A DNA stretch of 64,000 nucleotides from Anaerolineae bacterium (lineage in GTDB: Bacteria; Chloroflexota; Anaerolineae; UBA1429): positions 2,112,001-2,176,000 of the forward strand of contig OY776562.1 in NCBI GenBank assembly GCA_963675785.1, in the 5' to 3' direction. Numbering within the stretch: the first letter of the stretch is position 1; each line of letters starts with the position of its first letter. This document shows, piece after piece, positions 7,513 to 50,184 of this stretch. The notes beneath the pieces were generated by a model, which saw nothing but the letters and a program-made list of their open reading frames with translations, searched no databases and was not told the DNA's origin. The position numbers and the translations under genes are program-made.

Positions 7513-8325
7513 TTACCTTGTAGAGCAGCTAGTAGCCTTGCGCCAGGCATCGAGCAATTCCGCCAGATCAGCAAAGACGTAATCGGGCGCCGATTCGTAA
7601 GCAACGGCCTCTTCAGCCGAATTGACCCCGGTTAGCACCATGATGCTGGTAAGCCCTGCTCGATTGCCGCCAAGAATGTCCGTATCCAAGCGGTCACCCA
7701 GGATGGCCGTCTCTTCGGGTTTGCTATTCATCAGGCGCATAGATTGTTCAAAAATGATGGGTTCCGGTTTGCCGATGACCAGCGGTTGGGTATCGGTAGC
7801 GGCGATGAGTGAAGCCAAAATGCTGCCCGCCCCCGGGATCAATCCCTCTTCGATAGGATAGGTCTTGTCGGCGTTGGTGCCGATGAAGGTAGCCCCGGCG
7901 CGAATGGCCAAACAAGCCGTAGCCAGCTTTTGATAGGTGATGGTTTTATCCCAGCCGCAGACCACGTAATCCGCATCCTTACCAGCCAGCGTGAAACCGC
8001 GCTTTTCCATTTCATGCGAGAGCGCCGGCTCCCCCACAACATTCACTTTGGCCCCTGCAGGCGCGATCGTCGTAAGGTACTCCGCCGTTGCTACGCCAGA
8101 GGTGATGATCTCGTCTTCTTTCACGTCGATGCCAAAACCAGCCATGCGTTTGACAAACTCGTCCTGTGTGGCCGTCGAGTTGTTGGTTACCATCAGAAAC
8201 TTTATACCGCGCTCTTTAAGAAATCGCATGAGCTCGGGGCCGCCAGGCAGCCCCGTCTTGCCGCGATAAAGCACGCCGTCCATATCGATGAGCAGCGTGC
8301 GAATTGATGCAAGGTCAGTGGCCAT
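7513..8325 (-). CDS. HAD-IIA family hydrolase (NagD-like)
   Basis: DMDGVLY, TNNST, GKPE and GDRLDTDI motifs. Confidence 0.93.
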   Translation of the reverse strand: MATDLASIRTLLIDMDGVLYRGKTGLPGGPELMRFLKERGIKFLMVTNNSTATQDEFVKRMAGFGIDVKEDEIITSGVATAEYLTTIAPAGAKVNVVGEPALSHEMEKRGFTLAGKDADYVVCGWDKTITYQKLATACLAIRAGATFIGTNADKTYPIEEGLIPGAGSILASLIAATDTQPLVIGKPEPIIFEQSMRLMNSKPEETAILGDRLDTDILGGNRAGLTSIMVLTGVNSAEEAVAYESAPDYVFADLAELLDAWRKATSCSTR

Positions 8326-8458
8326 AACTCACTCCCTGTTCAGGTTACATTAGCAAACATTCTCACCGAGTATACCACAGCCTGAAACAAGGCTTCGAAT
8401 GAACCGAAATACCACATTATATCTGTATCCTTTATTGCGTTCTTGACGCAAAATACCC

Positions 8459-8487
8459 TTGACCAACGAGGTGATAAAGACTATAAT
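8459..8487 (+). promoter_or_regulatory. Sigma70-type promoter
   Basis: TTGACC-17-TATAAT. Confidence 0.85.
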
Positions 8488-8493
8488 CATACT

Positions 8494-8601
8494 TGTAGGT
8501 TGGCCTGTAGGGTCAGGGGAGTGCTGTGACGCAAGGTTGCCACGAACCAGATGCTCGGTAAGTTACCTCACGACGTGAGGAAGCTTGCTGAGCCTTTTTT
8601 T
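8494..8601 (+). ncRNA. Candidate structured leader RNA or sRNA ending in an intrinsic terminator
   Basis: Starts just after the promoter; two short hairpins closed by GGTT/AACC, then the hairpin 8553-8593 and T7 at 8595-8601. No family recognised. Confidence 0.55.
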
Positions 8602-8764
8602 GTGCCTTGAACAGGAACCAACAGACACTCTGACGTGAATGACATGATGCTCCGGATACCGGACAGTAATATTATGGGAGGTAAGTTCTAGCAAGGTAAC
8701 GGCCACACCAAAGAGGTGGTGGTAAGCAACGGACGCGCAAAACCTTGATGGAGAGGACAAAGCT

Positions 8765-9724
8765 GTGGAGGACGAGTCGACCAGACGCATCACCCGCGAA
8801 GCCGAGATAGACCAAATCTCTGCCGATGATACGGTCAGTCTGTACTTGAAACAGATGGGACAGGTACCATTGCTCACAGCTGAAGAAGAAGTTACCCTGG
8901 CCCGTCAGATCGAAGAAGGAACGTTTGCCAGAGCTCGAATCTGTGAGGGGAACTGCACCGAAGACGAACTTGATGAACTTGAGCGGATTGTTGTAATTGG
9001 CGAAGAGGCCCGTGACCGATTGGTGGTATCCAATACCAGGCTGGTCGTAAGCGTCGCCAAAAAGTATGTTGGGCAAGGTGTCCCGTTCCTGGATCTTATC
9101 CAGGAAGGCAACATTGGCCTGATGAAGGCCGTGGAAAAGTTTGACTACCACCGGGGCTTTAAGTTCAGCACTTATGCTACATGGTGGATCCGTCAGGGCA
9201 TTACGCGCGCCCTGGCACAGCAGAGCCGCCTAATTCGGCTGCCGGTTCATGCTGGTGATCAAATCCGCCGCATCTACCGCCTCGCAGAAGAGATTGAACA
9301 GGAGACCGGCCACAAGGCGTCTCCTGAAGAGATCGCTGCCGAAGCAGGTCTGCCAGCCGATAAGGTTGATCAGCTCTTGAGAATATCGCGTTATCCCGTA
9401 TCGCTAGAGCGCCCCGTGGGTGACGATGGCGATACCGAATTTGGCGATTTCATCGAAGACGATGATTCGCCCGAACCTACCGAAATTGCTTCACAGCAAA
9501 TGCTGCGGGAAACCCTAGAGAGTGTGCTAACCGCACTCACTCCCAGAGAAGCCCGTATCCTCCGCCTGCGTTTTGGGCTGCGTGACGGCAAACCTCATAC
9601 CCTGGAAGAAGTCGGCGAAAAGTTTGGGCTTACCAGGGAACGGATTCGCCAGATCGAGCATCAAGCGCTGGACAGGCTCCGCAACCCCCGTCGCAGTGAA
9701 AAACTGCGGGATTACATCCGTTAG
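8765..9724 (+). CDS. RpoD/SigA-family sigma70 factor, second copy lacking region 1.1
   Basis: [41 protein letters not shown] and TRERIRQIE motifs; GTG start with GGAGAGG RBS. Confidence 0.93.
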
Positions 9725-9729
9725 ACCCC

Positions 9730-46894: not shown

Positions 46895-46966
46895 CTCCTC
46901 GGGCTGGACTCGAACCAACAACCAACCGGTTAACAGCCGGTCGCTCTACCATTGAGCTACCGAGGA
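46895..46966 (-). tRNA. tRNA-Asn (GTT)
   Basis: TCCTCGG acceptor and ACCGG-CTGTTAA-CCGGT anticodon arm; CCA not encoded. Own promoter TTGACA-17-TAAACT at 47023-46995. Confidence 0.96.
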
Positions 46967-47040: not shown

Positions 47041-48291
47041 TTAGGTCAAATAGTCACGCAGCTTGCGACTTCGAGTTGGATGACGCAACTTGCGCAACGC
47101 CTTGGATTCAATCTGACGAATGCGCTCGCGTGTGACGCCAAACCGCTGGCCCACCTCTTCAAGAGTATGCGTCTGGCCGTCTTCGAGACCGAAACGCATG
47201 ATCAGCACCTCTCGCTCGCGTTCTTTGAGAGAATCAAGGCTTTCGGCAATCTGCTCACGAAGCAATTCGCGGTCCGTCTCTTCTACCGGGCTGGCCGTAT
47301 TTTCATCCGCAATAAAGTCCACCAACACACTGTTCTCTTCAGAACCAACTGGTGTCTCCAAAGACATGGGCTCTTGCGAAACGCGCATGAGTTGCTGCAC
47401 TTTATCAGCAGAATTCTCCAACCGTATGGCAACATCGCGTGGAAGTGCAGTGCCTGTGGTGCTGCAATTTTCGATAATACGCTGATCCTCTTTGGTAACA
47501 AAATCCAAGGCCATGGCCGTCTCTTCAGGCGTTGGATCCCGTCCCAGTTCTTGTTGCAGTTGGCGTTGTGCACGGGTAACACGATTGATCGATTCGACCA
47601 TATGGACGGGAATACGAATAGTTCGCGCTTGGTCGGCAATTGCCCTTGTAACCGCCTGTCGGATCCACCAGGTGGCATAAGTGCTGAACTTGAACCCACG
47701 CTTGTAATCAAACTTTTCAACAGCGCGGATCAAGCCAAGATTTCCTTCCTGAATCAGATCAAGAAACGAAAGCCCTCTGCCAAGATAGCGCTTGGCCACG
47801 CTAACCACCAGGCGAAGGTTGGCCTCAGTCAATCGCCTCTGAGCCACATCTCCCTGAAGCACCTTGAGTTTTGTAGTCTGGAGCTCTTGGGCAGAAAGAC
47901 TCGTCTCGGGGTCAGCCAATAACGCTTGCGCCTCAAAGCCTTCTTGCACAGCCTTGGCAAGGCGGACTTCTTCTTCACCAGAAAGAAGAGGTACCCGACC
48001 TATTTCGCGGAGATACATGCGTACAGGATCGTTGATCAGTGAAGGATCGTTGGAACTATTATCAGAAGTAGTGCGCATACGCGAGGCATCAGCCTCGATC
48101 TCTTTGTCCTCAACGGTTATAACCGGGATTTCCAGTTCTTCGAGAGACTCACGCAAACCTATAACCTGCCTCTTGGTTGCAGAAGCAGGAAGGGCGTCTT
48201 TGATGTCTTCTTCTGTCACATAGCCGCTTCGCTCGGCTTTTTCAACAAGCCTGCTGAACAATTGATCCTGTAGCGTGGGATCTGATGACAT
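47041..48291 (-). CDS. rpoD: Primary sigma factor RpoD/SigA
   Basis: Region 1.1 present, [11 protein letters not shown] and [24 protein letters not shown]; follows dnaG. Confidence 0.96.
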
Positions 48292-48312
48292 TCTTTGCTC
48301 CAAACTGGACGC

Positions 48313-50184
48313 TTACTTGCGACTCTTGCCCATCAAGGTTACTTCATATGCGCGCCGATTAGCTAGTTCAATCTCTCGCGAGATCTCTTCAGCCCTGGCT
48401 CCAAGACGTTCAGCCTCTTGCTTGTCGCCAGACTGTCGTGCATCCTCAAGGGCATATCGCAACTCTGCCAATGACCGGGAAAGATGTGCCTTGCGCATAC
48501 GTAGCGCACTTTTGATCAGATCCTCGATCGCCATATCCTCGGACATGGCTGGCCCCGCCGTCAGGGCATCGCGCGTGGATTCTACACGACCTACTAGCTC
48601 TTCGTCAAGCCATTCTAACTTCTCTTTTGAATCTTCTACTGTCTTTTTTTCAAGTGTAAGCAGCTCTTCAAAGAGAGCACGGTTGCGCACATCTTGAAAT
48701 GCTTCTGCATCGATTCCCGAGAGACTGCGGACTTGCTCAAACCGTTGGGGATAGAGCCATAGCAAACCAACTACACGATCCTCAATCGAGAGCGCACGCG
48801 CGGGTTGTCGCTGCGTCTCTGCCGCCTCCACCGGTTGCGCAGAATCCCGCTGACGATATCTGCGCATCTCCCGAGCCAACACCTGCTCGGATACTCGAAC
48901 AAGTTGTGACAGACGCTGCAGATAATGGCTTTGCTCAACCTGGCTGTCAATGGCAGCAATGACCGGCAAAATCCGTTCGGTAAACTGGCGTTTGCCCCGC
49001 GCCGTAGTCAAATCCTCTTCGGATGAGACAATACGCATCACAAAATCAACAAAGGGTACGGCCTCTTCTACAGCCTGATCCCAAAGCGCCCGATCGCGGA
49101 GGATAACCTCATCTGGGTCTAGTCCATCCGGAAGTGTCATCACCCGAATCTCGGCATTCAGCTGATTCTCATAGCGCACCACACCATCAGCGGATACCAG
49201 TGGCACTATTTTGTGCCCCAATCCGTCCCTGGCCGCATCCACCCCTCGCAATGTTGCATTGATACCAGCCGTATCCGGATCCAGCGCAAAAAGAAGCCTA
49301 TCCGTCATGCCACGCAGAATCTTGATATGGTCGTTGGTCAACGCCGTGCCCAGGCAGGCCACAAGATTGCGTACCCCTTCCTGATAGGGCACGATGACAT
49401 CCATATAACCCTCTACGATGACAACCGTTCCTGTGTCGCGAATTGCCTGGCGCGCTAGATCAATGCCATAGAGCACGCTGCCCTTGTGGAACAACGGCGT
49501 TTCGGGGCTGTTCAGGTATTTGGGCTGCGAATCATTGAGCACACGTCCACCAAAACCCATTACCCGACCGCGGTGATCACGAATTGGGAACATGATCCGC
49601 CCGCGGAATCGATCATATATGTTGCCCGAATCGCTTTGGGTGAGCAGCCCTGCTTTGAGCAAGTCGCTTTGTGGATACAAGCGCAAGAGGCGCTGTTCTA
49701 GAACATGCCAATCGTCTGGCGCAAAACCAAGTTGATAGGCACGAAGTGTCTCTGGCCTGAGACCTCTTTTGGTCAGGTACTGCCTGGCCTCTTCAGCGCG
49801 GGGATCATTGAGTAACAGGTGATTGTAAAAATCGGCCGCTGAAGCATTGACCTCGAACAAGCGATCGCGCTCGCTCTTGATGGCCTGTTCCTGCGGCGTC
49901 TGCGGACGCAGCTCAACCCCAGCCCGTTCGGCCAACATACGTAGCGCTTCGCCAAAAGCCAGGTTCTCTTGCTTCATGATAAAAGCAAAGACATCGCCGC
50001 CCGTGCCGCAAGAACCAAAACAGTGCCATGTTTGGGTATCGGGAAAAACGATGAACGATGGCGTCTTTTCAGTGTGGAACGGGCAAAGGCCTTTGTAGCT
50101 GTGGCCGGCCTTTTTTAGTTCCACATACTGACTAATAACATCCACCAGATCGAGGCGCTGGCGGATTTCGTCGACGACATCCAC
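48313..50184 (-). CDS. dnaG: DNA primase
   Basis: CPFHTEKTPSF..CFGSC, PKYLNSPET and VEGYMD motifs. Confidence 0.97.
   Translation of the reverse strand: MDVVDEIRQRLDLVDVISQYVELKKAGHSYKGLCPFHTEKTPSFIVFPDTQTWHCFGSCGTGGDVFAFIMKQENLAFGEALRMLAERAGVELRPQTPQEQAIKSERDRLFEVNASAADFYNHLLLNDPRAEEARQYLTKRGLRPETLRAYQLGFAPDDWHVLEQRLLRLYPQSDLLKAGLLTQSDSGNIYDRFRGRIMFPIRDHRGRVMGFGGRVLNDSQPKYLNSPETPLFHKGSVLYGIDLARQAIRDTGTVVIVEGYMDVIVPYQEGVRNLVACLGTALTNDHIKILRGMTDRLLFALDPDTAGINATLRGVDAARDGLGHKIVPLVSADGVVRYENQLNAEIRVMTLPDGLDPDEVILRDRALWDQAVEEAVPFVDFVMRIVSSEEDLTTARGKRQFTERILPVIAAIDSQVEQSHYLQRLSQLVRVSEQVLAREMRRYRQRDSAQPVEAAETQRQPARALSIEDRVVGLLWLYPQRFEQVRSLSGIDAEAFQDVRNRALFEELLTLEKKTVEDSKEKLEWLDEELVGRVESTRDALTAGPAMSEDMAIEDLIKSALRMRKAHLSRSLAELRYALEDARQSGDKQEAERLGARAEEISREIELANRRAYEVTLMGKSRK

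Follow-up and report, generated by a model that had tools for sequence, protein, structure and literature searches.

The window, a 64,000-nt stretch of the genome of an Anaerolineae bacterium, carries a short leader ahead of an additional RpoD-type sigma factor gene. Anaerolineae are abundant, mostly uncultured bacteria of wastewater and sediments, and to our knowledge almost nothing is known about gene regulation in this class. The genome carries two more RpoD-type genes, both of which encode region 1.1. A 420-amino-acid RpoD-type sigma factor with region 1.1 is encoded directly behind the dnaG primase gene (623 amino acids; window positions 47041 to 50184, minus strand for the pair). Since dnaG-rpoD is the classical arrangement, this gene likely encodes the primary sigma factor. 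A tRNA lies just downstream of the pair, at 46895 to 46966. The features of the leader and of the sigma gene behind it are, in window coordinates:

8459 to 8487, plus strand: sigma-70-type promoter TTGACC-17-TATAAT, in agreement with the consensus at 11 of 12 positions; the orthologous leaders are preceded by these hexamers at this spacing.
8494 to 8552, plus strand: 5' domain of the leader RNA, not significantly structured (z, -0.77), with a putative start about 7 nt after the -10 box.
8516 to 8521, plus strand: Shine-Dalgarno-like GGGGAG, the counterpart of GGUGA in relatives; predicted duplex with the 16S 3' end GAUCACCUCCUUUCU, -8.0 to -9.7 kcal/mol.
8526 to 8561, plus strand: candidate leader open reading frame (ORF) GTG...TAA of 11 codons, MTQGCHEPDAR; its TAA (8559 to 8561) lies 6 nt inside the hairpin.
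8553 to 8593, plus strand: terminator hairpin with the conserved base GCUCGG...CUGAGC, identified by folding against shuffles and by comparison of stem bases.
8595 to 8601, plus strand: U-run (T7) of the intrinsic terminator, read from the sequence, with one C between hairpin and run; relatives have T4 to T7.
8602 to 8764, plus strand: remaining 5' untranslated region (UTR), from the terminator to the sigma start, with no sigma-70-type promoter.
8676 to 8685, plus strand: Shine-Dalgarno-like GGGAGGTAAG (that is, GGGAGGUAAG) with no start codon behind it, resembling a STAB-SD; relatives have GAAAGGAGGTG.
8750 to 8756, plus strand: Shine-Dalgarno sequence GGAGAGG of the sigma gene, 8 nt before its GTG; GGAGAGG(CC) also precedes the starts of orthologs.
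8765 to 9724, plus strand: RpoD-type sigma factor of 319 amino acids with regions 1.2, 2, 3, and 4 and without region 1.1.

The promoter claimed in the original prediction is present at 8459 to 8487 and is the sole sigma-70-like site found by a promoter scan of positions 8200 to 8900 (0.6 expected). The claimed terminator was likewise confirmed in the sequence, as a hairpin followed by C and then T7. Its 41 nt form stems of 12 and 6 bp, separated by an A.A mismatch and capped by a GAC loop. The leader from 8489 to 8602 has a minimum free energy (MFE) of -46.9 kcal/mol, compared with -33.6 ± 3.5 kcal/mol for shuffled sequences (n = 200; z, -3.8; none of the 200 was as good). This signal sits in the hairpin, which alone reaches -26.5 kcal/mol versus -9.3 kcal/mol in shuffles (z, -7.0), and not in the 5' part. 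A simple terminator scan listed nothing at 8553 to 8601, presumably because the stem holds the A.A mismatch. With its stable, GC-rich hairpin directly before a U-run, the element is predicted to be a strong intrinsic terminator, at which transcription would end.

Orthologs of the sigma factor were found in 41 of the 42 genomes of the family to which the window belongs, which is its whole order in the collection. They share 66 to 81% identity, compared with 60 to 65% for paralogs, and among 201 genomes of the class no match above 64% identity to the sigma factor was found outside the family. Most orthologs (those at loci L010, L013, L014, L018, L028, L035, and L119, among others) start about 100 codons earlier and carry region 1.1 (MLE.VL.NAKARGFIT...), identified in L010 as Pfam PF03979. 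Region 1.1 is absent from the sigma factor of the window and from those of genera g20, g24, g21, g16, g2, g3, and g9, so a single ortholog group switches between group-1-like and group-2-like architectures.

A BLASTN search with positions 8440 to 8780 against 41 relatives returned no leader homolog, only the query itself and one 29-nt match in genome G032, which was rejected as a chance match within a Ser/Thr kinase ORF. Homologs of the leader were instead found through gene order, upstream of the sigma orthologs. They share a recurring unit: TTGACC-17-TATAAT, about 64 nt, a hairpin of 41 to 49 nt with the base (A/G)CUCGG...CCGAG(U/C), and a run of U4 to U7. An automated scan found both promoter and terminator in 30 of the 37 ortholog loci with upstream sequence, and the unit was seen by eye in three further loci (L031, L120, and L032). 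It is present in 19 of 23 genera, one further genus having been left out of this count because its contig ends there. The unit is absent from genera g23 (in which a hairpin lacks a U-run), g16, g2, and g13. The hairpin begins a median of 64 nt past the end of the -10 box, and in 12 of 16 genera this spacing is 60 to 68 nt.

A covariance model, R1, was built from 17 leaders, with a structure consisting of the 7-bp stem base only. It matches 23 of the 42 family genomes, once per genome and adjoining sigma orthologs (genome G055 was checked separately); the leader in the window, which has a GTG start and a Shine-Dalgarno sequence of modest strength, is among its weakest members, at 41.8 bits. Across the class (151 genomes, 146 of them outside the family), R1 gave weak matches of 24 to 31 bits in five genomes outside the family, none of them at a sigma gene. 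At 98 other RpoD loci, it gave two matches (L039 and L164), both at orthologs. The region upstream of a paralogous sigma gene in the genome of the window (L005) has no such promoter or terminator.

Within the unit, the hairpins are stable in the 16 genus representatives (mean z, -3.2) while their interiors cannot be aligned, suggesting that the structure is kept as the sequence drifts; since columns could not be aligned, per-sequence shuffles were used here. The stem base is 93.9% paired in the R1-fitted alignment, with the outermost pair switching among A-U, G-C, and G-U. The CUCGG/CCGAG core is near-invariant (CG in 25 to 26 of 26 sequences, UA in 21, and GC in 22 to 24), as counted in an alignment that was fitted to, and hence is biased towards, that structure. 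The pyrimidine fraction is 0.61 in the 5' arm and 0.36 in the 3' arm of the hairpin (16 genera). We also observed CCUC-like words in the 5' arms of 12 of 16 genera and GGAG-like words in the purine-rich 3' arms of 11, so that the terminator hairpins look like a Shine-Dalgarno sequence paired with an anti-Shine-Dalgarno mimic. Outside the hairpin, the conserved letters are a GUAGAU-like transcript start and a GGUGA-like word followed 3 to 5 nt later by AUG(C). Collectively, these comparisons establish the anatomy of the leader, its conservation, and its restriction to the sigma gene; it is a real, lineage-wide leader that uncultured Anaerolineae carry before an additional RpoD-type sigma gene. 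A search of the literature outside subscription journals returned nothing on a sigma-gene leader in Chloroflexota, and the leader is undescribed in the literature covered and in Rfam.

The statement in the original prediction that no convincing promoter lies between terminator and gene holds, as positions 8601 to 8765 contain no sigma-70-like site. The same was found in 16 of 16 genus representatives (0 sites versus 2.0 expected), a count that applies to sigma-70-like promoters and does not cover other sigma types. Barring a promoter of another type, the sigma mRNA must come from read-through of the terminator. An attenuator controlling the second RpoD-type sigma gene, as had also been proposed, fits both this result and the recurrence of the unit before the ortholog. 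Nine sequence runs contain the stretch, three of which are metatranscriptome libraries of one study. RNA contigs 95 to 99% alike (about 97 to 98% identity to the window) lie at 8701 to 9720 (X1), 8783 to 9299 (X2), and 9229 to 9725 (X3), covering the sigma ORF and reaching 64 nt upstream of it, with none on the leader; as assembled contigs from libraries in which DNA is possible, they show neither transcript ends nor absence of transcripts and are uninformative on the leader.

The remaining 5' UTR contains the Shine-Dalgarno-like word GGGAGGUAAG, which is complementary to the 16S 3' end and starts no ORF, as expected of a STAB-SD. By pattern, 10 of 16 genera have words resembling GAAAGGAGGUG at a distance of 6 to 88 nt past the U-run, and 13 of 18 leaders have no start codon within 16 nt behind the word. 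Two RNase J genes scored above the cut-off in the genome. By analogy with STAB-SD elements, the word at 8676 to 8685 probably stabilises the read-through mRNA. Further downstream, CAAGG (8692 to 8696) pairs in the MFE fold with CCTTG (8743 to 8747), enclosing a CCACACC/GGTGGTGG hairpin, and this structured block (8692 to 8747) ends 2 nt before the Shine-Dalgarno sequence of the sigma gene; relatives also have hairpins ahead of that sequence, such as GCATAC...GTATGC in genus g24. In genus g21, the leaders L033 and L034 share a reading frame that stays open for about 50 codons between the terminator and the sigma start. It closes at TTGA, a tetranucleotide that contains both its own TGA stop and the TTG with which the sigma gene begins, and in L034 it opens about 10 nt behind the Shine-Dalgarno-like word; this arrangement may reflect translational coupling in g21 only.

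The 5' domain of the leader behaves differently from the hairpin. In the window it is no more stable than its shuffles, and across 16 genera its mean z is -0.12, versus -3.2 for the hairpins of the same set. Individual 5'-domain folds differ from genus to genus, and a MAFFT and RNAalifold consensus of 20 leaders retained the stem base only, with no consensus pairs in the 5' domain. The three-way junction of the original prediction did not withstand refolding: its helices do occur as complementary words, but GGUU/AACC and UGGCC/GGUCA claim the same U, and the corrected fold reaches -11.1 kcal/mol versus an MFE of -19.6 kcal/mol for 8489 to 8552, a deficit of 8.5 kcal/mol. Of the switch proposed between GCAAG (8531 to 8535) and CTTGC (8584 to 8588), the complementarity is real, but the mutually exclusive fold loses 16.5 kcal/mol relative to the terminator fold (-30.4 versus -46.9 kcal/mol) and is not supported. 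In the window, pairing between the 5' domain and the 3' arm is somewhat stronger than in shuffles (-17.3 versus -13.1 kcal/mol; z, -2.1; 4% of shuffles were as good), and z fell below -1.5 in 5 of 16 genera. Over all 16 genera, however, the duplex energies of the 5' domain with the two arms did not exceed those of shuffles (mean z, +0.24 for the 5' arm and -0.40 for the 3' arm), and a trp- or riboswitch-type antiterminator was dropped from consideration on these grounds.

A search of the window against Rfam 15 gave no match at the gathering score; at E values up to 10, two chance-level matches appeared, the better of them at 15.6 bits against a cut-off of 50. In 11 related loci, the only Rfam family matched was a tRNA. 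The earlier view that the leader fits no known riboswitch consensus was thus borne out, while the suggestion of a novel riboswitch was not, as the 5' domain has no conserved fold and no conserved sequence beyond the Shine-Dalgarno-like motif and start codon, and no excess pairing with the terminator arms. Neither membership in a described class, nor a conserved aptamer fold with conserved nucleotides, nor a mutually exclusive antiterminator pairing was found, and the leader is no new riboswitch class.

What the 5' domain does share between genera is a potential ribosome binding site. The 16S rRNA, read from the genome, ends in GGAUCACCUCCUUUCU, which marks the conserved GGUGA as a Shine-Dalgarno word. 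In the window, the layout is GGGGAG, 4 nt, and GTG; most genera start with ATG, this leader and those of three other genera with GTG, and g3 possibly with TTG. In 10 of 16 genera, the stretch 30 to 44 nt past the -10 box holds a Shine-Dalgarno sequence followed by ATG, GTG, or TTG, compared with 2.2 genera expected from shuffles (P about 5e-6; duplex of at most -6.5 kcal/mol), a test whose window and threshold were set after the pattern had been seen and whose genera are related rather than independent. The remaining 6 of the 16 genera failed it. Fifteen genera have a Shine-Dalgarno-preceded start before the hairpin, and in 12 of them the ORF that follows stops within the hairpin or past it. 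In g22, g15, and g21 it stops 14 to 42 nt before the hairpin, and g5 has no such start. By simple arithmetic, about 65% of random frames would stay open for the 8 to 9 codons concerned. Both hallmarks of a leader-ORF attenuator, a short ORF with its own Shine-Dalgarno sequence and start (judged in the post hoc window) and its overlap with the terminator, are present.

Regulatory codons or a conserved arrest peptide were not found: the peptides are unrelated between genera, with only an Arg at codon 2 or 3 recurring, and the frame of the ORF relative to CUCGG differs between genera. In genus g8, four of five variable codons are synonymous in the ORF frame, whereas the two alternative frames give 0 of 4 and 0 of 3. 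There is no synonymous excess in g3 or g20, and by eye the g24 pair L030/G055 has no synonymous and three non-synonymous differences. A metagenome scan added only two orthologs among 80 loci, too few for a better codon test. In the model set out below, the short ORF would be translated.

Taken together, an unstructured 5' part of fixed length, a ribosome binding site with start codon, an ORF reaching into the hairpin's 5' arm, and the lack of an antiterminator and of a downstream promoter argue for a leader that is read by a ribosome over one that binds a ligand. The leader is probably a ribosome-coupled transcription attenuator of the sigma-70 paralog, and expression of the sigma factor is most likely gated by translation rather than by a metabolite-binding RNA. 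In the sequence of events that we propose, the near-consensus promoter would start transcription about 270 nt before the sigma gene, from the putative start site. After some 57 to 59 nt of unstructured RNA, the terminator at 8553 to 8601 would stop most transcripts, leaving only read-through transcripts as sigma mRNA. The likeliest switch would be a ribosome loading at the Shine-Dalgarno-like site and the GTG at 8526. Judging from the usual mRNA footprint, a ribosome with the stop codon at 8559 to 8561 would cover the RNA to roughly 8572, the whole 5' arm, and if it followed closely it would prevent termination. Efficient coupled translation would then raise sigma synthesis and lagging leader translation would lower it, although the direction of this response is itself predicted. 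Once transcription has passed the terminator, GGGAGGUAAG at 8676 to 8685 would probably bind 30S subunits and shield the read-through mRNA from 5'-3' decay. Coupling of this specific kind, with a ribosome that trails the polymerase closely enough to keep it from terminating, as in pyrBI, is the explanation we favor, held with slightly less than even confidence. It leaves the near-invariant CUCGG/CCGAG base unexplained.

The most serious alternative is a constitutively leaky terminator that merely scales down a strong promoter. The resulting RNA of about 108 nt would be a by-product or a trans-acting sRNA, and its SD-AUG would serve to bind 30S subunits and stabilise the short RNA. Such an arrangement would suit a compact unit of conserved, constant length with its own consensus promoter and strong terminator and with an unconserved peptide; elsewhere in the genome, consensus promoters likewise precede short leaders with terminators. 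A trans-acting sRNA gene would, however, be an independent unit beside a neighbor with its own promoter, and no sigma-70-like promoter serves the sigma gene in 16 genera. This speaks against a purely independent sRNA gene, as the terminator must be read through. The unit is, moreover, always linked to one gene, that of the sigma factor, and no conserved single-stranded seed besides the SD-AUG was found in the leader. We consider a leaky terminator unlikely, yet it deserves to be kept in mind.

The near-invariance of the stem base, while all else drifts, would be explained if CUCGG/CCGAG, or GGUGA, were the binding site of an RNA-binding antiterminator, if termination depended on NusA or NusG, or if the sigma factor fed back on its own leader. 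No RNA-only switch is visible, which also suits control of the terminator by a protein or polymerase factor. On the other hand, any intrinsic terminator needs a GC-rich stem base next to its U-run, and no candidate protein emerged. GGAUG motifs were considered as CsrA sites and dropped, as the single-contig genome (94.8% complete by markers) has no CsrA gene. We regard protein control as quite improbable. Least probable by far is a small-molecule riboswitch with the three-way junction as aptamer and GCAAG:CUUGC as antiterminator contact; it has in its favor a promoter-terminator layout typical of riboswitches and the modest pairing of the 5' domain of the window with its 3' arm, and against it the lack of Rfam matches, 5' domains that cannot be aligned across genera and do not exceed shuffles in stability, a junction far above the MFE, and a complementarity to the terminator arm that is not general.

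Leaders of similar layout were noticed elsewhere. A look-alike was observed in a genome of another Anaerolineae family (G111; L156:1441-1980), where TTGACA-17-TATAAT is followed by 65 nt with GAGGAG, 7 nt, and ATG (a 2-codon ORF) and by ACUCGGU...GCCGAG-U7. This leader, with the layout and stem base of the sigma leader and an R1 score of 30.4 bits, precedes a gene for a 105-amino-acid DksA/TraR-type C4 zinc-finger protein. The homolog of that gene in the genome studied here (36% identity) has no such leader. Outside the window, near position 1367121 of the same genome (G000:C1, minus strand), a second leader of the sigma-leader design has a consensus promoter, a strong Shine-Dalgarno sequence (GAAGGGGGG), and an ORF, MILLKQDTAL, that stops 3 nt before a GC-rich terminator hairpin; the next gene has its own AAGGAGG. 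Weaker examples were seen at 2604067, 2579224, and 817717; the one at 817717 precedes an RNase J gene. A possible pyrimidine-gene attenuator, also outside the window, lies near 1374202 (G000:C1, plus strand), where a dihydroorotase-like gene (MPSILIPGLIDAHVH...) is preceded by a consensus promoter, 56 nt of leader, and a terminator-like hairpin with UUUUCUU. The genome-wide scan for leaders with promoter, terminator, and upstream ORF (uORF) was noisy, picking up tRNAs and coding genes and yielding one or two clean look-alikes.

A general Anaerolineae design, in which a consensus promoter and an unstructured SD-AUG mini-ORF running into a terminator make ribosome-polymerase coupling itself the signal, with no antiterminator and here gating a sigma-70 paralog, is a speculative idea that we consider unlikely. 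Were it true, the state of translation would directly set the make-up of the RNA polymerase holoenzyme pool, and several polymerase-binding factors might share this input, as the DksA/TraR-type look-alike hints. The sigma leader is a clean case, with comparative support, of promoter-proximal termination before a sigma-70 paralog, and it offers a testable link from translation to sigma factor supply. It also illustrates that a region with the looks of a riboswitch, comprising a strong promoter, 110 nt, and a terminator, can instead be read by ribosomes, which matters when riboswitch discovery is automated in poorly studied phyla.

Among known systems, the favored coupling mechanism resembles the translation-coupled attenuation of Escherichia coli pyrBI (and pyrE), in which the ribosome blocks the hairpin and no antiterminator helix is needed. 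As in pyrBI, the leader ORF runs into an intrinsic terminator and the ribosome itself would block the hairpin. Unlike pyrBI, the leader described here has no identified UTP-sensitive pause tract, the gene controlled encodes a sigma factor, genera differ in the peptide and in its length, and the system is known from sequence. Sigma supply is also set after transcription initiation in the rpoS and rpoH leaders, whose translation is controlled by sRNAs or temperature, and in the E. coli rpsU-dnaG-rpoD operon, which has terminator T1 between genes. The former differ from the sigma leader in acting on translation through sRNAs or temperature, and T1 is not part of a promoter-proximal leader with a uORF.

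The word downstream of the terminator recalls the STAB-SD of the Bacillus thuringiensis cry3A mRNA, which is a Shine-Dalgarno-like word that binds 30S subunits without starting translation and blocks RNase J (PMC4113751). In both cases the word is non-initiating and lies in a 5' UTR, and RNase J is present here; the word in the sigma leader, however, lies 6 to 88 nt behind a terminator and not at a processed 5' end, occurs in 10 of 16 genera, and has a predicted stabilising role. Antibiotic-responsive attenuators such as Bacillus subtilis vmlR likewise place a short uORF upstream of an intrinsic terminator but use alternative RNA folds and drug-stalled ribosomes (PMC9226507), whereas the sigma leader involves no resistance gene. 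In the whiB7/wblC leader of actinobacteria, efficient uORF translation favors the terminator and stalling forms an antiterminator (bioRxiv 10.1101/2023.06.02.543512). Like the sigma leader, it combines a uORF with a rho-independent terminator in the long leader of a transcription regulator; it senses the state of translation, as the sigma leader would. The sigma leader differs from what is described there in having no detectable antiterminator pairing and a uORF without visible amino acid bias, and given the missing antiterminator its polarity is probably opposite to that of whiB7. Among the systems compared here, whiB7 offers the closest parallel for a transcription regulator placed behind a uORF and a terminator.
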